Below are positions 11,175 through 20,528 of a stretch of 64,000 nt of DNA, one piece after another. Under the pieces are notes generated by a model, which was given only the letters and a program-made list of their open reading frames with translations, made no database searches and was not told where the DNA came from. The position numbers were made by a program, and so were the translations under genes. Every line of letters starts with the position of its first letter. Position 1 is the first letter of the stretch. The stretch covers positions 11,899 to 75,898 of the forward strand of contig CAZPWS010000003.1 of the NCBI GenBank assembly GCA_964590225.1, in the 5' to 3' direction. The DNA is from an uncultured Fibrobacterota bacterium. GTDB lineage: Bacteria; Fibrobacterota; OXYB2-FULL-49-7; JAEUSG01.

Positions 11175-12319
11175 AACAGCATATCTCTATTATTGTTCTA
11201 TTGCTTTTTATGCTTTCTGTGAGTGAAGTTTCGCTTAAAGGCGCTTCCGAACTCCGTAATGTCGGCCGTATAGAGGAGGCTTTGATAATATACGATTCCC
11301 TTATACAAATAAATAGCAAGGATTCAGATGCCTTGATTGCACGAGGATTTTGCAGATTGGCGGTTTCCCGTGTCGAGGAGGCCTATGCTGATTTTAAGAC
11401 TGCGATCGATATATCAAGTGATTATGTTGATGGTTATATTGGCATGGCTTTGGCCGCAAAACGAATGAACCATTTTGAATTAGTTGATTCATTAATAGCT
11501 CTTGCAATAAATACCTGCAATAGCGATAAATCAAAACTGCTCACGCTCCAGAATCAGCTTTGGGAGGTCGGTTTTTATAGTCAGGCACGAAAACTTTCTG
11601 CAGTATTTGCTGCGGAGGGTAATCGGGTTTGCTATCTAAAGGTAAATAGCGCTTTTGTTGCGCTGGGGTATGATCTTATTGACAATGGGGGTAATTGGCG
11701 TGCGATTGAAGGGGGGGCATTACTTGGAGTTCGTCCGGATTGGTCGCTTGGGGCGGTAGCAGGTAGTTACGAACGAAACGGTATAATCAACTCTCGGCTC
11801 TCGCTTTCTCCATCTTATAGACATACTTATCGGTTAAGTGGTGCATATGAGCTATCGGTTGCTTATCCAGAACGGTTCTTGCCATCAATATCACAAAAGA
11901 TACTGCTAAGTTATTTGGTAAGAGCAAACATAGTGGCGGAAGTTGGCGTAACTGCAGCCAAATATGATAATGGATGGGTCCGTTTAGGAATTATAGGGAG
12001 TGAATTTAACCATCATGCAGCATCTATCAGGTATCAACTGTCGGCAGGATTGGACAATAACAACGATAACATAATGACTCAGATGGCTGCGATTGGTTAT
12101 GCTGTTTCTCAAAAGTCAAAAATTACAATTGGTGGAGCGATTGGCAGCGAGACTGTTGATAAACTCGCGTACATCGCATCAGAAAAAGTGGCGTCGATCT
12201 ATTCTGTTGTTGCGTTCCCCTTGTTCTTTAGAGTAGGCATGGTAGTGTCGCTTGCAGAAGAGTGGCGCGACAAAAATCCTTTTCGCACGACTTTTTCGCT
12301 TTCCATTATTTATCGATAG
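11171..12319 (+). CDS. signal peptide + TPR repeats + C-terminal beta-barrel-like domain (mini PgaA/BcsC-type outer-membrane exporter)
   Basis: Signal peptide (IIVLLLFMLSVSEV). TPR-like helices (ALIARGFCRLAVSRVEEAYADFKTAIDI...). The C-terminal roughly 230 aa are Gly/Ser/Tyr-rich with an alternating hydrophobic pattern typical of beta strands. Confidence 0.45.
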   Translation: MKQHISIIVLLLFMLSVSEVSLKGASELRNVGRIEEALIIYDSLIQINSKDSDALIARGFCRLAVSRVEEAYADFKTAIDISSDYVDGYIGMALAAKRMNHFELVDSLIALAINTCNSDKSKLLTLQNQLWEVGFYSQARKLSAVFAAEGNRVCYLKVNSAFVALGYDLIDNGGNWRAIEGGALLGVRPDWSLGAVAGSYERNGIINSRLSLSPSYRHTYRLSGAYELSVAYPERFLPSISQKILLSYLVRANIVAEVGVTAAKYDNGWVRLGIIGSEFNHHAASIRYQLSAGLDNNNDNIMTQMAAIGYAVSQKSKITIGGAIGSETVDKLAYIASEKVASIYSVVAFPLFFRVGMVVSLAEEWRDKNPFRTTFSLSIIYR

Positions 12320-13012
12320 ATAAGATTGCAGTTGGTGGAGGAGCTTACGCCATTGGGTTAATGAGCGGCATTAATAATCTTCTTGGCGCGCTCTATTCTT
12401 TTCCTGGTGGATATCTTGCTGATAGGATTGGAATAAAAAATCTCTGCTTGTTTTTAATATGATGGCTGCTACAGGGTATATGATCGTAGTGCTTGTTCCA
12501 ATATGGCAAGCAGTTATTATTGGTTCATTTTTGTTTCTTTCGCAAAATGGGGTGAAAGAGAAGGAATAAGATATTCATTTATAGTGACATCAATAGAAAT
12601 GGTAACTGCTATTTTAATTTACATTCCTGTTGCATATCTTGCTGATAAGGGTTCTAAAAAGCCTTTTGTTATAATTACATTCGGTTTTTTCACCGTTTTC
12701 CCATTGGTATTGCTATTTAGCAATTCATATAGCGCATTGATTGTTGCCTTTATCTTCCGAGGTCTTAAGGAGTTTGGCGAACCGACCAGAAAAGCGTTAA
12801 TTATGGATCTTGCGCCGGAGGGAGAAAAAGCTTCGGCGTTCGGTCTTTACTACCTTTTAAGGGATGTTGCTGTATCGGTAGCAGCATTTGGTGGAGCTTT
12901 TTTATGGTCTATAAACCCATCTGTTAATCTTATTTCCGCGTTTTTCTTTGGCCTTGTGGGGACTATCTGGTTTGCTATTTACGGGAAAGATGTTAACAAA
13001 GCGGCGACTTAA
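12262..13012 (+). pseudogene. decayed MFS transporter gene (two out-of-frame fragments, N-terminal helices missing)
   Basis: Fragment 12262..12462 carries MFS motif A (GLMSGINNLLGALYSFPGGYLADRIG). Fragment 12503..13012, in another frame, carries the second-half motif (FRGLKEFGEPTRKALIMDLAPEGEKASAFGLYYL) and C-terminal TMs. Together they are far shorter than the roughly 400 aa of an MFS protein. Confidence 0.45.
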
Positions 13013-13200: not shown

Positions 13201-13761
13201 ATGTCTGCATTCAGGGTAACCCCAAGCGCTCAACACATTCAATCTGCTTATGATCGTGCGCTTGTATTTGATAGAATGAAAAAAAAGAGCGAAGAGGAGA
13301 GAGCTGCAGAAAGCGCATCAAAGATTGATACAGTTGTTAAAGATTCTTATAAAGATGTAACTACCACTTCTTCGTATCTTCCTGTTGATAAACCAAAACC
13401 TAATACGGTTCCTTTTAAGCCTGGTTTTGTGTTTGAATATGGCCGTGGTACAGAAGGAGGGGGGGTTACTGTTACTATCACAGATGTTGATAGGGTTAAA
13501 ATCGAGATGGAGTCGAATGCCATGACAGATGACCGGAAAAAGGCGGTCAAGTCACTTGTCATGCTGGGACTTGGAAAGATAAACAGGGAGGATCTTAATA
13601 AGGCAACTTCCGATGGAAGGCAATCGGTTGAAACAATTAAAAAAGAATTGTCTTATATGGGGCTTAAGAGTGATATCCCCTTTGGGCTTGGCGAGGATTC
13701 TTTTTATTTCGACTTTGCCAATTTGCTCCGGCAATATAAATCCATAGATGTCAATGGCTAA
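13201..13761 (+). CDS. hypothetical protein; its last about 35 codons are duplicated at 19279..19396
   Basis: ORF of 186 aa with no recognisable motif. The 3' end lies inside direct repeat copy A. Confidence 0.35.
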   Translation: MSAFRVTPSAQHIQSAYDRALVFDRMKKKSEEERAAESASKIDTVVKDSYKDVTTTSSYLPVDKPKPNTVPFKPGFVFEYGRGTEGGGVTVTITDVDRVKIEMESNAMTDDRKKAVKSLVMLGLGKINREDLNKATSDGRQSVETIKKELSYMGLKSDIPFGLGEDSFYFDFANLLRQYKSIDVNG

Positions 13762-13878
13762 TTTACGGGCCGAAAATATTGTCTCAGAACCTTGTTTCTG
13801 TTTGCATTAGAAACTTCTTCTAATGCAAAGTTCGGGTTTATAATTTGTTGGGTACAGGAGAAGAAAAAGAAGCCTTCT
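13654..13878. repeat. direct repeat copy A (about 225 bp, about 90% identical to 19277..19478); contains 3' end of 13201..13761 gene and a sequence matching the holA 3' end
   Basis: Read by eye: tatatggggcttaagagtgatatcccctttgggcttggcgaggattc...ggtacaggagaagaaaaagaagccttct matches 19277..19478, with several substitutions and a 35 nt indel. Confidence 0.7.
13804..13826. terminator. perfect 9 bp stem / 5 nt loop hairpin (gcattagaa-acttc-ttctaatgc) present only in repeat copy A
   Basis: The inverted repeat is seen directly. It lies 42 nt after the stop of the 13201..13761 gene. There is no strong T-run, so intrinsic-terminator function is uncertain. The hairpin is missing from copy B. Confidence 0.3.
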
Positions 13879-13922
13879 TTGAATAAGTCTTTGGGCAGGT
13901 TTGGCTTCTCTGTTAAGAAAAA

Positions 13923-14011
13923 GTGAATTTTGTTCACGCTTATGGCGCTATAACCGTGAATAAAATCTGTTTTTAACTATCTATTCACGGTTATGTTGCT
14001 AAAAGCGTGAA
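13923..14011. promoter_or_regulatory. array of five alternating GTGAA/TTCAC half-sites forming nested inverted repeats immediately upstream of fic
   Basis: ttcacgctt(13933)...aagcgtgaa(14003) and aaccgtgaata(13952)...tattcacggtt(13982) are exact reverse complements. An additional gtgaa lies at 13923. The array ends 19 bp before the fic start. Confidence 0.4.
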
Positions 14012-14029
14012 TTAATACTATGTTTAAGT

Positions 14030-14902
14030 ATGTCAAAAATACTGAATGTGTATGCAAAAATATCCAAGCTCCGTGAGCGCTATTATGTTTCCATTAAGGG
14101 AAAACAATCACTTTTAGGTCTGCTCTCAGACAATGAAGTTGCAGAACAGGTTTATAACTCTAATGCTATAGAAAATAGCACTCTTACCTTAGAAGAGACG
14201 GAAAAAATTCTTCTTCAGATTGATCTGGATAGATACATTACAGAAAGAGAAATTTTTGAAGCAAAAAACCTCTCTCGTGTTGTTTCTTACATTGATAAGA
14301 AAGCTAAAGAGCAGGAGCTTGATCTGGACATGATATTGCTGCTGCATAAAATGCTTATGTCAAATATCAGGGATGATGTAGCCGGCAGGTTTAGAAAAGA
14401 GGGAGAGTGGGTAAGAGTTGGAAACCATATAGCTCCAGATTCTAAATTGGTGCATGGACTGCTTGAAAATATGATAACTGAATACAATGCCCATAGCAGC
14501 GAAAATATCATAAAACGGATAGCGCTCCTTCATCTTACATTTGAAAACATTCATCCTTTTGTTGATGGAAATGGCCGTATTGCCAGGGCATTAAACAATT
14601 ATTTGCTCATTCGAGAAGGTTTTGTACCAATTAGCATAAAGTTTATTGATCGAAAAATGTATTATAATGCTTTTCAGCAGTTTGATAAAAATAACTCAAT
14701 GTCAATAATGGAGTCTATAGTTGGTCGGGCGCTTGCAAACAGCTATCACAAGAGGCTTGCATATCTGGAAGGTAAGAGCATAATTACGCTTAAAGAATAT
14801 GCAAGAAGCAGCAAAATGTCATACTCAAACTTGCTCAACAAGGCAAACCGTCAAACAATTGAAGCGTTTATTGAAAAAGGTGTTTGGAAAATAGGCGAGT
14901 AA
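14030..14902 (+). CDS. Fic/DOC family protein (AMPylator-type)
   Basis: HPFVDGNGRIARAL matches the Fic active-site motif HPFx(D/E)GNGR. The length (290 aa) is typical. Confidence 0.8.
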   Translation: MSKILNVYAKISKLRERYYVSIKGKQSLLGLLSDNEVAEQVYNSNAIENSTLTLEETEKILLQIDLDRYITEREIFEAKNLSRVVSYIDKKAKEQELDLDMILLLHKMLMSNIRDDVAGRFRKEGEWVRVGNHIAPDSKLVHGLLENMITEYNAHSSENIIKRIALLHLTFENIHPFVDGNGRIARALNNYLLIREGFVPISIKFIDRKMYYNAFQQFDKNNSMSIMESIVGRALANSYHKRLAYLEGKSIITLKEYARSSKMSYSNLLNKANRQTIEAFIEKGVWKIGE

Positions 14903-14976
14903 TGTTCATGTTGATAAATAAAATTCTACAAAAACTCTAACTTGCTGTCAAGTCATTGATTTTAAAGACATAGCGG

Positions 14977-16044
14977 TCAGCGACCCAAAACCGCCATGGC
15001 ACTCTCTTTAAATTTACCACTACGAATAGATACAACATATTTACCACAGGGGCGCCCCGATGCATTCCATAAATAACTGCAAGCTTCTCCATAACTTGCC
15101 ATTTTGGCATAAAATACACGCTTACCGTCAATCGTAACTATTGAAAGTTCCACCGGCTCATTTTTACTGCTGTTAAAAGTTATTCTCAAAACCGAATTAA
15201 AAGGTGAGGGAGAAAGCGCCAACACACCTTGCCTCGCAAAACCAACATTTCCCTGCTCAATAGCAAGACATTGGCAAAAAGGCGAAGAGTAAGGGGTTTG
15301 TGGTAGCCCCTTGCCAACCCAGAGCGCAGCGTATCCTTCCAAACTGATAACCCTCGCCGGATCGAAACCCATGTTGTCTATAAGCCAATCCCTTGCCTGG
15401 TTTGCTCTGTTTCCGCTACGGCAATAAATGAAGACTTCCGTCTCGGTGCTCAAACAATTTGGAGCCTGTGTCTGAAATTCACCGGAACTCCAGTCTAGTC
15501 GGCACGCTCCCGGAACCATCCCAACATCTGTTTCAGATTGCGTCCTTACATCTATAACCTTGACCTCCCTGCTTCCAACCATTATTGCCCTGAGTGCATA
15601 CCCATCAATAACAGCAGGCAGAACAGCGTTGGCCTGAAGTAATTTTAACGAAAGAGTATCCTGTACACTCCTTCTGTGGGAGGGCAAAAGATCAAAACCG
15701 CTATACCAGATAGAGTCCGATGGATATCCATCATCAGCTATTCGTGATGCCGTATACTGAGCCAATGAGCCACTGTAACAGGTAATCAGAAGTCTGCGCT
15801 GCTGACGAAGCAATCGAACTGAAGCCACGGCTTCATCCGCTGAACAATAAAAGGTTGGTACAGCAACTTCCACAGGGTTTGCCATATCCCTTACATCAAA
15901 TGCAATATAATCAACATTTGTTGAATTCCAGACTTTCAAAACTGAGTCAGTGAGAAATGAGACCGCACCCACATTAAACGATAGCCCGAACAATAAAAAA
16001 ACAGGCTTTATTCTATTCATACTCAAAATATAGGAAATAAACAA
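14977..16044 (-). CDS. secreted tandem rhodanese-domain protein with T9SS C-terminal sorting domain
   Basis: Signal peptide. A second rhodanese domain with the active-site loop VFIYCRSGNRANQA, and a degenerate first domain (ITCYSGSLAQ). The C-terminal roughly 80 aa (SPSPFNSVLRITF...GKYVVSI...) match the Por-secretion-tail pattern. Confidence 0.55.
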   Translation of the reverse strand: MFISYILSMNRIKPVFLLFGLSFNVGAVSFLTDSVLKVWNSTNVDYIAFDVRDMANPVEVAVPTFYCSADEAVASVRLLRQQRRLLITCYSGSLAQYTASRIADDGYPSDSIWYSGFDLLPSHRRSVQDTLSLKLLQANAVLPAVIDGYALRAIMVGSREVKVIDVRTQSETDVGMVPGACRLDWSSGEFQTQAPNCLSTETEVFIYCRSGNRANQARDWLIDNMGFDPARVISLEGYAALWVGKGLPQTPYSSPFCQCLAIEQGNVGFARQGVLALSPSPFNSVLRITFNSSKNEPVELSIVTIDGKRVFYAKMASYGEACSYLWNASGRPCGKYVVSIRSGKFKESAMAVLGR

Positions 16045-16146
16045 GCCAAGAGCGAATGTGTTGATTGTGGTGACGAAAAGTTTGTGGCATTCTCCTGCAA
16101 GCAGCGCAGTTGCTGTCCAAACTGCGATAAGACTTGCCCTGAGTGA
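16024..16146 (+). mobile_element. remnant of an IS91-family transposase N-terminal zinc-binding domain (no start codon, about 40 codons, ends in a stop)
   Basis: The translation ...ECVDCGDEKFVAFSCKQRSCCPNCDKTCPE* fits the C-x2-C-G-x-E-x4-(A)FSCK-x-R-x2-CP-x-C pattern of the IS91 transposase zinc-binding domain. No catalytic domain follows. Confidence 0.35.
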
Positions 16147-16236
16147 GCCGAAGGGAGCGTTCCATTATTCTTGGCATATGCTTAATGACTGAAGGTAAAA
16201 CTCGTTTTTTACCGTTTCCCACAGGAAACGATAATT

Positions 16237-17166
16237 ATGAAAATAAATTGCTTTAATATCAATTTCTTCATATCTTTGCATAGAAGGAATGGAGAAAAAA
16301 TGATACCTTGCATATTCGATTATACCGACTATAAGAAATATCTGGCAGAGCTTTATAAGGTAAGGAAGGCCGAGAATAAGGGGTTCTCGTACAACGCCCT
16401 TTCTATGCGTGCGGGATTTAAGAACAAGGGCTTCATTTACAATGTTATAAATAGCAATAAGCGGTTATCCAAAGAAAGTACAATAAAACTTTCTATGGCG
16501 CTTAATCATAATAAACAGGAAACTGAATATTTCGAAAATCTTGTTTTTTTTAACCAGGCCGAAGAGCTCAAAGAGCGTAACTACTATTATGAAAAACTGA
16601 TTGCAGTTAAACCATGCAAGCAAAATGTTGGCGAAGCATACAAACTTATGCAGGATCAATATGCGTATTACTCCGATTGGCGAAACAGCGCCATCCGCTC
16701 GTTAATTGGCCTATATCCATTTAAAGATGACTATGCATGGCTCGCAAAAAGTCTCTATCCTCGGATAAAACCTAAAGAGGTAAAAAAGTCTATTCAGCTA
16801 CTGGAAAATCTTGGACTCATCAAAAAGGGTAAAGACGGAATTTACAAACTCGCTGAAAAACATATTACAACTGGCAAAGAAGTTACAGGTCTTGCAGTGC
16901 AAAACTTCCACAAAGCGTCTGCGATACTTGCATCGGAAGCAATAGCTAACCTGCCCAAGAGCAAGCGAAACATCACGGGAATTACGCTTGGTATTTCAAA
17001 AAAGACCTACACACGAATATGTGAAGAGATTGCACAATTTCGTAGTCGTATTATCGATCTTGCAGATTCTGACGAAGGGGCTGATCGCGTGTATCAGCTC
17101 AATTTTCATTTTTTCCCCATTTCAAATATTGATAACCAACTTTCTAAAACAGGAGATAAGGTATGA
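16237..17166 (+). CDS. TIGR02147-like (Fibrobacter succinogenes paralogous family) putative HTH protein
   Basis: MIPCIFDYTDYKKYLAELYKVRKAENKGFSYNALSMRAGFKNKGFIYNVI resembles the N-terminus of the Fibrobacter TIGR02147 family. The likely true start is the internal Met at 16300. Its stop overlaps the start of the next gene (ATGA). Confidence 0.45.
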   Translation: MKINCFNINFFISLHRRNGEKMIPCIFDYTDYKKYLAELYKVRKAENKGFSYNALSMRAGFKNKGFIYNVINSNKRLSKESTIKLSMALNHNKQETEYFENLVFFNQAEELKERNYYYEKLIAVKPCKQNVGEAYKLMQDQYAYYSDWRNSAIRSLIGLYPFKDDYAWLAKSLYPRIKPKEVKKSIQLLENLGLIKKGKDGIYKLAEKHITTGKEVTGLAVQNFHKASAILASEAIANLPKSKRNITGITLGISKKTYTRICEEIAQFRSRIIDLADSDEGADRVYQLNFHFFPISNIDNQLSKTGDKV

Positions 17167-18902
17167 AAACCTTTCTGAACATCACCAACAAGTTCGCAGT
17201 ATTAACACTAATAATGATTCTTTCAAAATGCAGTCAGGAAGGGCCACTTGCTGGCAACACTTCTGAAACTGGAAATGCTGCTGTAAAAGGAATTCTATAT
17301 ACCGAAAATGGACAACCAGCAGTCAATGCAGAGGTCAAACTTATAACATCAGACCATCGGCCAGGGCCAAACCTTGCTAAAACAGAAGCAGTTGTAACAA
17401 CAACATACACCAACGCTCAAGGCGTTTATGAATTTAGCAGTATGCCAAGAAATTTTTATAATGTCCTTTGTAAAAGTAATGGTGCTAATGCTTTTATAGA
17501 TTCAATCTATTTGCAGCCAAATCAAATAACAGAGGTTGAAAATAAAACACTCAAATCGCCAGGATCATTACACGGCGTAGTTCGTCTTCAGCCAGGAGAC
17601 GATAACCGAAGTGTTCTTATTATTCTTTTTGGAACAGATTTCTTTACTACCACTGTTGATACTTCGGGCAAATTTAACATTACTCACATTGCAGAAGGTA
17701 GATACAATGCAATGATCTATGTTCTGAATACTGCTGGTGTATATGAACCATTTGACACTGTTTTTACTATACGCTCAGGGAAAACAGACACTCTTGGAGC
17801 AATAATATATCCTAATCTTACAAGTATTCCTGTTGTTACCGGATTTACATCTGAATATGATGATGTTAGGCAGGTTGTTACTTTGAGGTGGAATAAACCT
17901 ATAAACGGTGAAGTGGCGGGATATGATATATACCGAATGCATCAGGATTCGGCTTTCAAGAAAATTAACATCGTTACTTTGACGGATACTCAGTATGAGG
18001 ATGGCATAAATAGCATACTCATGCCTGAATATACCTATAGCTATAAAGTAGTTGGTGTTGATAAGGATGGAAACGAAGGAAACAAAAGCATAACAACAAA
18101 CCAAACAATAAGGCAGGCATTTTCAATTGCTGACACAATCATTATGTCGGGTTCGGGTATAAAAGTAATGTGTGCGAATGATAAAGGTGATTTATTCGCC
18201 CTTAAAGAAAATGGAGATGTGGAAGTTTATAATAGCAATTTCACGAAAATTGGCAGCTTCAACATTGCTACAATTTTGCCAAATTATTATGACATCTATA
18301 CTGTCAATGATGGAAAAATATATTTTCCATCTGGAAACAGCGATACTCGCATGATAGATTCGTTAGCTGGAGACTCATCTTTACCATACGGCATATTACG
18401 ATTTGATTATAACGGTAATCTTGAAGAAACAATACCTATAAATCATCCTATGCAGCCAGGCGACGAATTCCTTAAGTACAACAATAACTATTACTTTGGT
18501 AAGTTTCACAACATATTTTATTCGCCAACGACTGAACCATTTACAATAGATTCATTTGAATGTCCCAAAAGAAACAACTATAGTCTAACACAACTAATTG
18601 GGATCAATAACGATAAGTTAATTTTTGCTGACTATGGTGAATTCTTCATTACAAATACTGATGGCGCTCTTGTTTCTAACATAAAATTACCGCCACATAC
18701 ATATCCACGAGGTATTTGGAATGGCATTATAATTTCTCAGAACTTATCAGGCACGGTATATGATGGCTACACAATAAAAGGTGAACTTGTATTCAGATGC
18801 ATTGTTGAACCACTTGGTATGTGGGCTCATCCTATATCATATTTTGATGAACAATTGATACTTTTGTGTGCTGATGGTAGTGTGATAAAAATTTCCAAGT
18901 AA
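17163..18902 (+). CDS. lipoprotein with carboxypeptidase-regulatory-like (Ig-like) and fibronectin-III-like domains
   Basis: Signal peptide with a Cys (LTLIMILSKC). Two segments of the pattern G-x-V...G-x-P...A-x-V. The Fn3-like stretch (LRWNKPINGEVAGYDIYR). Translationally coupled to the TIGR02147-like gene. Confidence 0.4.
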   Translation: MKTFLNITNKFAVLTLIMILSKCSQEGPLAGNTSETGNAAVKGILYTENGQPAVNAEVKLITSDHRPGPNLAKTEAVVTTTYTNAQGVYEFSSMPRNFYNVLCKSNGANAFIDSIYLQPNQITEVENKTLKSPGSLHGVVRLQPGDDNRSVLIILFGTDFFTTTVDTSGKFNITHIAEGRYNAMIYVLNTAGVYEPFDTVFTIRSGKTDTLGAIIYPNLTSIPVVTGFTSEYDDVRQVVTLRWNKPINGEVAGYDIYRMHQDSAFKKINIVTLTDTQYEDGINSILMPEYTYSYKVVGVDKDGNEGNKSITTNQTIRQAFSIADTIIMSGSGIKVMCANDKGDLFALKENGDVEVYNSNFTKIGSFNIATILPNYYDIYTVNDGKIYFPSGNSDTRMIDSLAGDSSLPYGILRFDYNGNLEETIPINHPMQPGDEFLKYNNNYYFGKFHNIFYSPTTEPFTIDSFECPKRNNYSLTQLIGINNDKLIFADYGEFFITNTDGALVSNIKLPPHTYPRGIWNGIIISQNLSGTVYDGYTIKGELVFRCIVEPLGMWAHPISYFDEQLILLCADGSVIKISK

Positions 18903-19088
18903 AATTACTAAATGGCGATTTGAGTCCTTGCGATAGCTTTTGGTGCCTGTTAAGCTTCAGCTTATACAGGCGCACTTATTTCAGCCGGCTGATTTGAAAA
19001 TTGTTGTTTTTAAGAGAATTACCATGGTATAATTGATTGAAGCTGGCGATACGGAGATCGGAGAATACTGGAATTGACTCTTAGTTAA

Positions 19089-19277
19089 ATAAATATTGAC
19101 CATCCAGAAAATCAATCTGCCTTTCTGTGGGGACCCCGTAAGTCTGGCAAATCAACATTTTTAAAGACTGCTTTTCCAGATAGTCATTGGTTTGATTTTT
19201 TTAAAACAAAACTAAACATACCCATTTACCGTATAAATATAGTCAGTAATTTGACTCGGGTTTATACACTAACCACC
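19089..19277 (+). pseudogene. 5' fragment of a P-loop AAA ATPase gene (AAA_14/DUF4143-like), truncated
   Basis: The translation INIDHPENQSAFLWGPRKSGKSTFLKTAFPDSHWFDFF contains a Walker A motif (GPRKSGKST) in the context typical of AAA_14 ATPase N-termini. No start codon. It runs into the repeat and stops. Confidence 0.4.
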
Positions 19278-19478
19278 AGCCGGTATTCTATATGGGGCTT
19301 AAAAGTGATATCCCTTTTGGGCTTAGCGAGGATTCGTTTTATTTCGATTTTGCCAATTTGCTCCGGCAATACAAATCCATAGATGTCAATGGATAATTTA
19401 CGGGCCGGCAATATTGTCTCAAAACCTTGTTTCTGCTTTATAATTTGTTGGATACAGGAGAAGAAAAAGAAGCCTTTC
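19277..19478. repeat. direct repeat copy B (partner of 13654..13878); overlaps the 3' end of holA
   Basis: tatatggggcttaaaagtgatatcccttttgggcttagcgaggattc...gatacaggagaagaaaaagaagcctttc. It lacks the 35 nt hairpin segment present in copy A. Confidence 0.7.
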
Positions 19479-20528
19479 CATGCTTGGCAGGGAATGGTTA
19501 AAAGAGCCGTTTGATTTTAGATCCCAATCGGCGGTTGTTAGAAGGTTAACGCAGTATTTCAGGTTCGCAATTGAATAATTCGACAGCTGAGAAAGTACCT
19601 TCGGAAGAAAGATATATCGATATACACTTTTGGGTGTCATTAACTTTTCGCCGCTGAAACCGGACTCGTTTGCCGCTTTTGCCATTAGCGCGCCAAAAGC
19701 ATCTTTTGTTTTTATTCGGCCATTTGCCAGTTTTTGGGCTTCGGTGAACTTTCCTTCGTTGCTGGCAAACCATAGTTTTAGCATAAGTAGCTTTACAAAT
19801 GAATCGAAGAGTGCCGAAACAATTTGAATTGAGTGAACATTGTAGGCAAATAGGTTATGCAGTATTGAAAGCGAAGTTCCGCTCTCTCCCCGTAAAAGAG
19901 GGGGGGGTAAATCCCACGGTTTGCATGCTCTTGACAGTGTAGTGTATTCATTTACTGCACTTTCAGAAATTTCCTGTCGTGGAGGAAGAACAATGTCGAT
20001 TTTGGTCAATTCCGACACGATGGTATGTAATTCGTTACCTACCCGTTCAAACAGTATGTTTGCCGCTCTATTGCTGATTTTTCTGCCAAACCTTGTAAGC
20101 GTTTCTTGTACAATCCATTCAGAAATTTCGTAATCTTGCGGAACTGGAAAATATTCAACTGCAATGTGTGTAGGCGGCTTTGAAATAAGTTTCTTGAAAG
20201 GATGTTTTTCGGCCACTTTTCCGCCGATTGTTTTACCTTCAAGTAAAAGTATAGATGAGGAGCTTTCCTGAAGCATATATGGGACAAGGTCTTCAAGTGT
20301 GTCGGATTTCAGAGTGTCACAGCCACGGACAAGTATAGTAGTTTTTTCTCCAAATAAGGAGCCCGCCCCAAGCTTTTCTCCTATGTCTGAAGCTAAAATG
20401 TCAGAAGCATGATACACCTCTATAGAACTTCCTTTTGCACTCGAAGGGGGTTCTTTCTTTAGAATGGCCTTTATTCGGTCTTCTTTATTGGGCGTGTGTC
20501 CACCTATCAGTATGTGTATTGTTGTCAT
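19419..20528 (-). CDS. holA: DNA polymerase III delta subunit
   Basis: Pattern ...SLFGEKTTILVRGCDTLKSDTLEDLVPYML...ILLLEG...WIVQETLTRFGRKISNRAANILFERVGNELHTIVSELTKIDIV fits the HolA family. 369 aa. Confidence 0.55.
   Translation of the reverse strand: MTTIHILIGGHTPNKEDRIKAILKKEPPSSAKGSSIEVYHASDILASDIGEKLGAGSLFGEKTTILVRGCDTLKSDTLEDLVPYMLQESSSSILLLEGKTIGGKVAEKHPFKKLISKPPTHIAVEYFPVPQDYEISEWIVQETLTRFGRKISNRAANILFERVGNELHTIVSELTKIDIVLPPRQEISESAVNEYTTLSRACKPWDLPPPLLRGESGTSLSILHNLFAYNVHSIQIVSALFDSFVKLLMLKLWFASNEGKFTEAQKLANGRIKTKDAFGALMAKAANESGFSGEKLMTPKSVYRYIFLPKVLSQLSNYSIANLKYCVNLLTTADWDLKSNGSFNHSLPSMERLLFLLLYPTNYKAETRF

Follow-up and report, generated by a model that had tools for sequence, protein, structure and literature searches.

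A 64-kb stretch of an uncultured Fibrobacterota-like chromosome (the window, meaning the whole stretch that was analysed) contains an island of 5412 nt (13877-19288) lodged between two convergent genes, the 3' ends of which are both present twice. Gene X (13201-13761, + strand), on the upstream side, encodes an intact conserved hypothetical protein of 186 aa, and holA (19419-20528, - strand), on the downstream side, encodes the delta subunit of DNA polymerase III and is likewise intact (TIGR01128, 119.9 bits; cutoff 80). A preliminary description of the locus regarded both as core genes. This holds for holA but not for X, which is a lineage-restricted hypothetical protein: no Pfam or NCBIfam family and no PDB fold matched it, and its homologs number nine among 5.8 billion protein clusters, the best showing 59% identity.

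The repeats that bracket the island are in direct orientation. Copy A (13654-13876; 223 nt) consists of the functional 3' end of X (the last 35 codons and the stop), a 22-nt spacer and a non-functional fragment of the holA 3' end (holA', 13784-13876, - strand) carrying a 35-nt insertion. Copy B (19289-19476; 188 nt) consists of a non-functional X fragment (X', 19289-19396, + strand; 35 codons and a stop), the 22-nt spacer that separates the X' stop from the end of holA, and the functional 3' end of holA (the last 19 codons). The preliminary description had already recognised the two repeats and assigned the true gene ends to them correctly; however, its edges required revision, since copy A ends at 13876 and copy B does not span 19277-19478. 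It had also called for a precise alignment, which yielded 12 mismatches over 188 aligned nt (93.6% identity, 6.4% divergence) and one 35-nt indel; with blastn, the two repeat segments gave E values of 3e-60 and 4e-14. Uninterrupted identity extends over at most 24 nt, the next blocks measuring 23 and 20 nt, and the 24-nt block (13853-13876) lies at the edge of the homology, adjoining the island joint. Beyond the repeats homology ends abruptly, identity in the 60 nt on either side being 17-28%, which is the chance level. The novel joints fall between 13876 and 13877, inside the holA coding sequence, and between 19288 and 19289, inside that of X. No inverted repeat joins the two ends of the island, and the two copies are the sole repeats of at least 40 nt in the window. 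Because contigs from at least six independently assembled samples span both copies at 100% identity, the two-copy structure is not an assembly artefact.

Cargo genes and composition of the island

Ahead of the cargo genes lies a strong palindrome (13933-14011) with 30-nt arms, the inner 13 bp of which are perfect. Its DNA fold has an energy of -21.4 kcal/mol (z -7.5), and it lies 19 nt upstream of the start codon of a Fic gene, for which it is likely a regulatory site. The Fic-domain protein itself (14030-14902, + strand; 290 aa) was annotated correctly from the outset (PF02661, 4e-21). Against the PADLOC defence models it matched PDC-S04 (1e-31) and SoFic (4e-30) with partial coverage, and nothing else in the cargo matched any of these models. 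A secreted rhodanese-domain protein is encoded on the opposite strand (14977-16044). It had been described as a tandem rhodanese with a T9SS tail; the rhodanese assignment stands (PF00581, 1e-9), but only one domain was detectable, and the C-terminal sorting signal is weak (PF18962, 20.8 bits, below the cutoff of 27). Directly adjacent, at about 16045-16134 (+ strand), an IS91-family transposase has left approximately 30 aa of its zinc-binding domain, as previously suggested (PF14319, E 5.1e-5; 23.6 bits, below the cutoff of 26.3; profile positions 37-65 of 90). The catalytic Y2_Tnp domain is absent, and the window holds no second copy. Its presence inside the island shows that a rolling-circle element was active in the past.

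The next two genes form a conserved module. The first (16237-17166, + strand) encodes a TIGR02147/DUF4423 protein, in agreement with the earlier annotation (TIGR02147, 279.8 bits); it is 70% identical to a homolog (L025) after which a homolog of the secreted protein also comes next. The second (17163-18902, + strand) overlaps the first by 4 nt and encodes a secreted or putative lipoprotein of 579 aa with CarboxypepD_reg and fn3_3 domains. The earlier label of lipoprotein is therefore only partly sustained: the CarboxypepD_reg protein is there, but its lipobox is non-canonical. The last cargo element is the stub of a P-loop (AAA-type) ATPase gene (19089-19288, + strand), which lacks a start codon, ends exactly at the joint between the island and copy B, and has a reading frame that continues into copy B. 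It had been called a truncated AAA ATPase, for which the matches are weak (AAA_24, E 0.002; AAA_14, E 0.0099).

In composition, the island stands apart from its surroundings. Its GC content is 38.35%, compared with 42.5±1.0% in 478 other windows of the same size, none of which is as low, and its tetranucleotide signature is the most deviant of any such window. The AT-richness perceived by eye is thus real, though modest and uneven; the composition is internally mosaic, with 44.7% GC in the rhodanese gene. With respect to codon usage, three of the four cargo genes show the best fit to host preferences of all 44 genes tested, and the rhodanese gene shows the second-worst.

The good codon fit of these three genes could be taken to mean that nothing was inserted at all, and that the arrangement is old and native, its low GC being a property of accessory or secreted-protein genes. 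Two of the cargo features (TIGR02147/DUF4423 and the T9SS tail) are typical of the phylum. Gene order around X and holA is also fluid in relatives: in the nearest of them in public collections, at 56-59% protein identity, X is not next to holA and the gene order differs. Scans of DNA for a close relative, a donor genome or an empty site gave 0 hits, and the protein clusters were singletons. However, partial copies of both gene ends require that X and holA were once adjacent at a single junction, the pseudo-fragments are little decayed, and the island is a compositional outlier, all of which make a native origin extremely improbable. The evidence supports the view that the island is accessory DNA of atypical composition that was inserted where X and holA converge. 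The preliminary description had placed the insertion at this junction as well, but had called the site intergenic, whereas both joints lie inside coding sequences and the crossover could fall anywhere within 188 nt.

Pfam and NCBIfam searches of the island ORFs, of six-frame translations of its non-coding stretches and of the neighbouring genes found no recombinase, which bears out the earlier statement that no integrase is left; a lost integrase is possible, without any support in the sequence. The island likewise holds no phage, plasmid or conjugation genes, and it gave no match to phage or plasmid DNA.

Divergence between the repeat copies

The differences between the copies are concentrated at silent positions. 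Over the 105 coding nt derived from X, six of the seven differences are synonymous third-position changes (the X' codons of copy B being AAA, CCT, TCG, GAT, TAC and GGA), whereas either of the remaining reading frames would give 0-1; dS is about 0.36 and dN/dS about 0.03. The one non-synonymous change in X', G164S, affects a residue that is invariant in all nine X homologs. In the part derived from holA, two of the three differences between holA' and the functional end are synonymous and one is not. A count of at least 8 synonymous changes among the 10 coding differences, which are the whole sample for this argument, has P = 0.002-0.013 if the duplication arose in place and one copy was neutral, and P = 0.1-0.9 if two selected alleles diverged. 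Copies A and B thus behave like a pair of alleles, each having diverged under selection in a genome of its own. As the synonymous excess is improbable under in-place decay, the spare fragments of X and holA would be functional alleles imported from a related lineage. The same excess contradicts the earlier proposal that a resident attachment region was duplicated and then decayed.

An origin in place has nevertheless some points in its favor. Here, a tandem duplication of 188-223 nt, or a very long target-site duplication, would have received DNA between its two copies, which later diverged, and the flanking direct repeats do resemble a target duplication. Bacteria often replace segments of core genes homologously, and this could mimic allelic divergence if the functional halves were later replaced by ordinary recombination. 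Yet simple decay is rejected by the synonymous excess, and to rescue the model by allelic replacement one would have to assume two separate events, both with an endpoint in or beside the short repeat. The island also lacks terminal inverted repeats, and a duplication of ~190 nt is far beyond the target duplications made by transposases. Taken together, an in-place origin appears very improbable. Classical transposons leave short target-site duplications of 2-15 bp; a classical transposon or insertion sequence was rejected as a candidate on the basis of the 188-223-nt flanking repeat and the missing inverted repeat at the island ends.

The 35-nt indel distinguishes the copies further. The segment is found in copy A only (13801-13835, with its placement ambiguous by about 2 nt), is unique in the window and includes, at 13802-13828, a hairpin whose 11 bp are all perfect (fold energy as DNA -12.6 kcal/mol, z -5.1). 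GTTC/CTTG tetranucleotides, the insertion context of IS91/ISCR elements, occur near it, as expected by chance. The preliminary description had taken the segment to be a loss from copy B. However, the homologs of holA (40-57% identity) all end in ...K-x-x-T-R-[FLY], as holA does via copy B, and once the 35 nt are taken out of copy A, holA' again reads in frame to its end, ...RLLFLLLYPTNYK(P/T)ETRF* (...YPTNYK(P/T)ETRF*). Judged from these ends and the restored frame, the segment is a gain by the non-functional holA fragment of copy A, where it disrupts the conserved ...ETRF end. Both G164S and the 35-nt insertion would fit a brief period of decay after insertion, and light decay only.

Routes of insertion

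The best explanation, with about an even chance of being correct, is a Campbell-type single-crossover insertion of circular DNA that carried a diverged X/holA junction. In the ancestral chromosome, X and holA would have stood tail to tail, 22 nt apart, with one copy of the junction. The incoming circle, from a related lineage, would have carried a homeologous copy together with the accessory genes, and one reciprocal crossover between the two junctions would have left the insert bracketed by two hybrid copies. The spare fragments would have been functional in another genome until shortly before insertion, decaying thereafter through G164S in X' and the hairpin-forming insertion in holA'. Since the island lacks a recombinase, the favored catalyst would be host homologous recombination (RecA) acting across the 188-nt segment. 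We infer this catalyst, the circular intermediate and the related-lineage donor alike.

Similar events have been measured in conjugation experiments with E. coli, where circularised non-replicative DNA integrates by recA-dependent single crossover and leaves locus duplications of 109-950 bp; single crossovers were 14 times commoner than homology-facilitated illegitimate recombination (56 versus 4 of 60 clones) (PMC3240628). As in E. coli, a direct duplication flanks the insert (188-223 nt, within the above range), no recombinase has to be encoded by the insert, and both chromosomal genes can stay intact. Unlike in E. coli, the segment is 6.4% diverged with identical blocks of at most 24 nt, and the event is a natural one reconstructed after the fact. 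The minimum identity commonly quoted for RecA strand exchange is about 20-30 nt; as the blocks lie close to it, a homologous crossover at this divergence would be inefficient. An earlier event is also required for the circle to have captured its junction copy, because that copy is flanked on both sides by unrelated DNA (the region upstream of Fic and the truncated ATPase gene). The exact cut of the ATPase gene at the joint suggests a deletion, possibly one that removed a recombinase gene and further homology.

The IS91-type remnant would be one possible past source of circular intermediates. IS91/ISCR elements have ori-IS and ter-IS ends, insert next to GTTC/CTTG and make no target duplication. 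Toleman et al., in 2006, reportedly proposed that homologous recombination rescues ISCR/IS91 circles and that part of the flanking segment is duplicated as a result, as in complex class 1 integrons. The present island is comparable in that it, too, has partly duplicated host sequence on both sides and contains the remnant of an IS91-family transposase. It differs in retaining only ~30 zinc-binding residues, the catalytic domain being absent and neither ori nor ter ends being recognisable; furthermore, the remnant is located centrally instead of at an edge of the island, and nothing ties it causally to the insertion. The island as a whole was rejected as an IS91/ISCR element, given that it holds no intact HUH (Y2) transposase. 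Going further, one could imagine a recombinase-less DNA circle, perhaps made by an IS91-type element, that uses the junction as a homology 'address' and moves accessory genes between related species by a route not yet recognised. Such a circle would insert by host recombination and renew its address with host sequence at each excision, so that the X fragment would still resemble a recently functional allele; we consider this quite unlikely.

A degraded element of the e14/phage 21 type would produce a comparable footprint. In this case, a tyrosine or serine integrase would have acted at a short core in the holA 3' end, and the element would have brought a surrogate holA 3' end with downstream DNA, including the X fragment, thereby keeping the target intact; a later deletion would have removed the integrase gene along with the 3' part of the ATPase gene. 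The e14 prophage in the icd gene of E. coli, where phage 21 also resides, is flanked by an intact icd and by icdC, a C-terminal pseudogene fragment with mostly synonymous differences (PMC13626634, citing Hill et al. 1989). The likeness to the present locus extends to the intact target gene, the displaced C-terminal fragment, the mostly synonymous differences and the preserved frame, and direct repeats flanking an island between intact genes are what attL and attR sites would look like. In addition, the longest perfect block is at the homology edge, where a core site would be expected, and the truncation of the ATPase exactly at the other joint fits a deletion. However, the ORFs and six-frame translations contain no integrase or integrase fragment, and the island lacks an excisionase and the phage, plasmid and conjugation genes and DNA matches mentioned above. 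The deletion endpoint must also coincide with the homology edge. Unlike the single gene duplicated at icd, the repeated segment comprises the ends of two convergent genes and their spacer, and an attachment site would have no use for X'. As a passenger, the X fragment should decay neutrally, yet its synonymous to non-synonymous ratio is 6:1, which means that it must have been captured very recently. An integrase-driven origin is therefore held to be unlikely.

Linear DNA from a related lineage could have produced the same arrangement without a circle, through homology-facilitated illegitimate recombination. Homologous recombination in holA or the junction would have anchored one end, and the Fic-side end would have been joined illegitimately inside the recipient holA 3' end, upstream of the anchor, with the junction duplicated as a result; a deletion between the ATPase gene and the imported X' would have followed. 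This sequence of events accounts for the allelic copy B and the abrupt non-homologous joints. Transformable bacteria are known to undergo this process, which has also been put forward to explain gene-array footprints of a similar kind (PMC5361080, PMC3240628). Among these, the orphan immunity-gene arrays of the Vibrio cholerae T6SS also combine foreign genes beside a conserved anchor with leftover gene-end fragments, but there genes were displaced and arrays formed, whereas here the flanking genes are whole and the anchor is duplicated (PMC5361080). Against this route, the only direct comparison, given above, found illegitimate recombination to be far rarer than single crossover, and it usually leads to deletions, not duplications (PMC3240628). 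An extra deletion is needed to explain the truncated X' and ATPase, and the donor must already have had the island genes upstream of X'. On balance, we regard insertion of linear DNA as rather improbable.

Significance for the host lineage

The event at the X/holA junction is of an ordinary kind with a clear footprint, and it reveals no new system. Its value lies in the preservation of this footprint, which records the entry of accessory genes into the chromosome of an uncultured, Fibrobacterota-like lineage for which genetic tools are lacking and virtually no close relatives have been sequenced. The pattern of synonymous and non-synonymous differences within the flanking repeats makes it possible to tell import from local duplication in a single genome, and the same test may be used on further islands that have long, imperfect repeats at their flanks but lack a genome for comparison. 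For the host itself, the Fic protein, the secreted rhodanese and the pair formed by a regulator and a secreted protein would all have been acquired horizontally.

Anatomy of the repeated gene junction

The island lies between two copies of one segment in the same (direct) orientation, copy A (13654-13876, 223 nt) and copy B (19289-19476, 188 nt). The copies differ at 12 of 188 aligned positions (93.6% identity) and by a single indel of 35 nt, present only in copy A at about 13801-13835; blastn recovers the two aligned pieces with E = 3e-60 and 4e-14. In the 60 nt beyond each repeat edge, identity drops to the level of chance (17-28%), and no other repeats of at least 40 nt were found in the 64-kb window. 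Identical blocks shared by the copies reach 24 nt at most, the largest being located at the edge of the homology. The imperfect direct repeats noted in the preliminary description are thus borne out, as are its limits for copy A, while it placed the left edge of copy B about 12 nt too far out. In at least six metagenome samples of one study, each assembled independently, contigs run through copy A, the island and copy B with 100% identity, and the structure is no artefact of assembly. As a single clone is represented in these samples, they are silent on the ancestral state.

What is repeated is the stretch where two convergent genes meet: X (13201-13761, plus strand), a conserved hypothetical gene, and holA (19419-20528, minus strand), encoding the delta subunit of DNA polymerase III. 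Copy A contains, in order, the true last 35 codons and stop of X, a 22-nt spacer, and a non-functional 3' piece of holA. Copy B contains a spare set of the 35 X codons with their stop (19289-19396), the spacer, and the true end of holA, comprising 19 codons and the stop. The novel joints fall within coding sequence, rather than at an intergenic site as had been proposed. The two genes had also been regarded as core genes. This is justified for holA, which matches TIGR01128 with 119.9 bits against a cutoff of 80. X is not demonstrably core: this open reading frame has no match in Pfam or NCBIfam, a search of 5.8 billion protein clusters yielded no more than nine homologs, and the predicted structure of the protein (moderate, pLDDT 70.7) returned no fold match in the PDB.

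The differences between the copies are distributed unevenly over codon positions. Within the 105 coding nucleotides derived from X, 7 positions differ, 6 of which are synonymous third-position changes in the X frame, whereas the two remaining frames give 1 and 0 synonymous codon changes (X frame: dS ~0.36, dN/dS ~0.03). The sole amino-acid change in the spare X fragment, G164S, affects a residue that is invariant in 9/9 homologs. When the 35 nt are removed, the holA part of copy A reads in frame as ...RLLFLLLYPTNYK(P/T)ETRF* with the same stop position, and differs from the functional end by two synonymous changes and one non-synonymous change. Duplication of the junction in place, followed by neutral drift of one copy, would be expected to yield only about 30-40% synonymous changes. 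In a test resting on just 10 informative differences, at least 8 of 10 synonymous changes has P = 0.002-0.013 under in-place decay, compared with 0.1-0.9 under divergence of two functional alleles. In-place duplication with decay is thereby statistically rejected and, with no terminal inverted repeats present either, is very improbable. From the synonymous excess we infer that the spare fragments probably belonged to functioning X and holA genes of a different but related genome until not long before their arrival; neutral decay since then is small. Accordingly, X and holA would have lain side by side in both lineages, with one junction between them. A wholly ancestral arrangement is scarcely credible, as it leaves the partial copies of both gene ends unaccounted for. 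The earlier proposal of foreign DNA at the X/holA junction between long repeated junction copies is thus supported, whereas its duplicated and then decayed attachment region gives way to one resident and one imported allele.

The 35-nt segment (13801-13835), of which the window holds no further copies, forms a perfect 11-bp hairpin, TTGCATTAGAA-ACTTC-TTCTAATGCAA, 41 nt 3' of the X stop codon. Homologs of holA at 40-57% identity all end in ...K-x-x-T-R-[F/L/Y], and the same ending is found in the holA of the window, by way of copy B, and in copy A once the 35 nt are removed. Given this common ending, the hairpin-free state is ancestral, and the 35 nt are an insertion that interrupts the non-functional holA piece in copy A, a gain by copy A and not the loss from copy B that had been suggested. 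A role of the hairpin as a terminator was rejected: a consensus scan made no call, and overall counts equalled those of shuffles.

Gene content and composition of the island

The island between the copies (13877-19288, 5412 nt) has a GC content of 38.35%, compared with 42.5±1.0% in 478 other windows of equal size, none of which is as low. In tetranucleotide usage it lies 0.192 from the window profile; elsewhere this distance is 0.123±0.013 (maximum 0.180). The island had been described as AT-rich, which holds in that its GC is the lowest of all, but only modestly so and not for the rhodanese gene (44.7% GC). This gene also has the second-worst host synonymous-codon fit of 44 genes, whereas the Fic, DUF4423 and 579-aa genes have the three best. 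Overall, the island is compositionally distinct yet mosaic.

Leftmost is a strong palindrome (13933-14011; 30-nt arms, 19-nt spacer, inner 13 bp perfect) with a DNA fold of -21.4 kcal/mol (z -7.5), ending 19 nt short of the Fic start codon; it may serve Fic as an operator or as a 5' leader structure. Its 13-mer core has two one-mismatch matches in the window and otherwise does not recur. Both the palindrome and the 35-nt hairpin were considered as dispersed repeats and dismissed, each being unique within the window. The Fic protein (14030-14902, plus strand) also matches defence-associated Fic models. It is followed by a secreted rhodanese protein (14977-16044, minus strand), whose T9SS tail is present, if weak. 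Only one rhodanese domain is detectable and a search for a second found none, leaving the label "tandem" unproven. The reported IS91-family transposase zinc-binding remnant of about 30 aa (16045-16134) is real and lies on the plus strand (PF14319, E 5e-5, just under the gathering score). It lies between the rhodanese gene and the island's right half and, together with the composition of that gene, suggests that the island was built from at least two sources.

The right half carries a TIGR02147/DUF4423 gene overlapping the gene for a 579-aa CarboxypepD_reg secreted protein (16237-18902, plus strand). The two form a conserved module that also occurs in a distant relative (L025, 9133-11731), where it is surrounded by toxin-antitoxin genes; the DUF4423 proteins are 70% identical, and the partner proteins, like X, 42%. 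The island ends with the stub of a P-loop ATPase gene (19089-19288) reading into copy B. To the left of this stub, assemblies from two samples both break within the same ~50 nt (19026-19073; contigs L013/L004 and L016/L009, overlaps of only 12-22 nt), possibly through a local drop in coverage or the presence of a minor variant. Searches of the open reading frames, of the non-coding parts translated in six frames, and of neighbouring genes detected no recombinase or recombinase fragment, in agreement with the earlier statement that no integrase is left.

The junction in other genomes

Exact-protein look-ups with X, holA, Fic and the 579-aa protein returned matches from one study only, in the same context throughout. 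The contigs concerned match the window at 100% identity, with the exception of L018, whose only differences lie in the MFS region and which matches the window through copy A. Upstream of X, the MFS transporter gene of the window is in two fragments (12262-12462 and 12503-13012) with its middle helices missing. L018 (SRR13617041; 1-160) leaves the window sequence left of 12585, continuing an intact-looking MFS reading frame, and carries three SNPs (12611, 12634 and 12652); a second allele or strain therefore exists in sample SRR13617041. L018 was discarded as a variant junction, since it ends inside copy A and varies only in the MFS gene.

A holA-based scan of species-representative genomes found neither an empty site nor a donor, exact scans with 23-nt blocks gave 0 matches in genome and metagenome collections, and the 90% protein clusters are singletons. 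The nearest homologs (56-59% identity) belong to a "Fibrobacteres bacterium" MAG; these matches, along with the strong TIGR02147 family member, suggest that the window comes from an uncultured Fibrobacterota-like bacterium. Such relatives are uninformative on an empty site because there X precedes rpmI-rplT-pheST and holA follows mutL. For example, the two nearest relatives (58-59% identity) have the X homolog immediately 5' of rpmI-rplT-pheS-pheT (L020, 3138-5471; L021, 6943-9284), a slot usually occupied by infC. In the window, X lacks this linkage. Another relative, L022, has a Fic gene near X; the protein shares only 29% identity with the Fic of the island, and a shared island was therefore rejected.

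Other sources and targets were also considered. The island Fic found nothing among viral contigs, and the island DNA gave a single 136-nt match, to the Fic domain, in plasmid and phage collections; a phage or plasmid origin was set aside on these grounds. A tRNA or RNA gene as the insertion target was likewise dropped, as the window has none.

Origin of the island

Campbell-type insertion by a single reciprocal crossover is the most likely origin, to which we assign roughly an even chance. If the chromosome and a circular DNA shared one segment, one reciprocal crossover would insert the circle, and the product would always be an insert between two direct, hybrid copies of that segment. Genes entering the shared segment would keep whole ends, and the spare ends would be left beyond the far side of the insert. 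The observed anatomy matches this product, and the second parental copy is accounted for by the allelic divergence. As the island contains no recombinase, host homologous recombination is favoured as the putative catalyst. In E. coli, non-replicating circularised DNA integrates in a recA-dependent manner, leaving 109-950-bp duplications of the homologous locus, and single crossover outnumbered homology-facilitated illegitimate recombination by 56 to 4 among 60 clones (PMC3240628). The latter process, acting on linear DNA (PMC5361080), is improbable here, as it is rare and requires extra steps.

The main rival is an integrative element resembling e14 or phage 21 that has since lost its integrase. 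The e14 element is flanked by intact icd and the C-terminal pseudogene icdC, which differ mostly by synonymous changes (PMC13626634), much like the flanks of the island, and the longest identical block of the island lies at the edge of the homology, where a core site would be expected. However, there is no trace of integrase, phage or conjugation genes, and a useless X fragment in an attachment site should decay, whereas 6 synonymous changes to 1 non-synonymous change are seen; we consider this origin unlikely. The ATPase gene is truncated precisely at the island/repeat joint, so there may have been a deletion at this point that possibly removed more, including a recombinase. A lost integrase is conjecture.

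For the single-crossover origin, an earlier capture step would be needed, because the incoming junction copy is itself bounded by unrelated DNA. The shortness of the identical blocks (24 nt at most) is a further weak point of this origin. Rolling-circle elements are a known source of circular intermediates, and the IS91-family remnant shows that one was once present within the island DNA, although it is not tied to the insertion event. Campbell-type insertion of an island with long imperfect direct repeats is a known kind of event, and the distinctions of the present case are modest: the shared segment spans two convergent gene ends, and there is no recombinase. It is doubtful that it represents a recombinase-free, homology-addressed movement of accessory cassettes between related species. 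A further modest distinction is that the pattern of synonymous changes allows the imported origin of one repeat copy to be demonstrated from a single genome.
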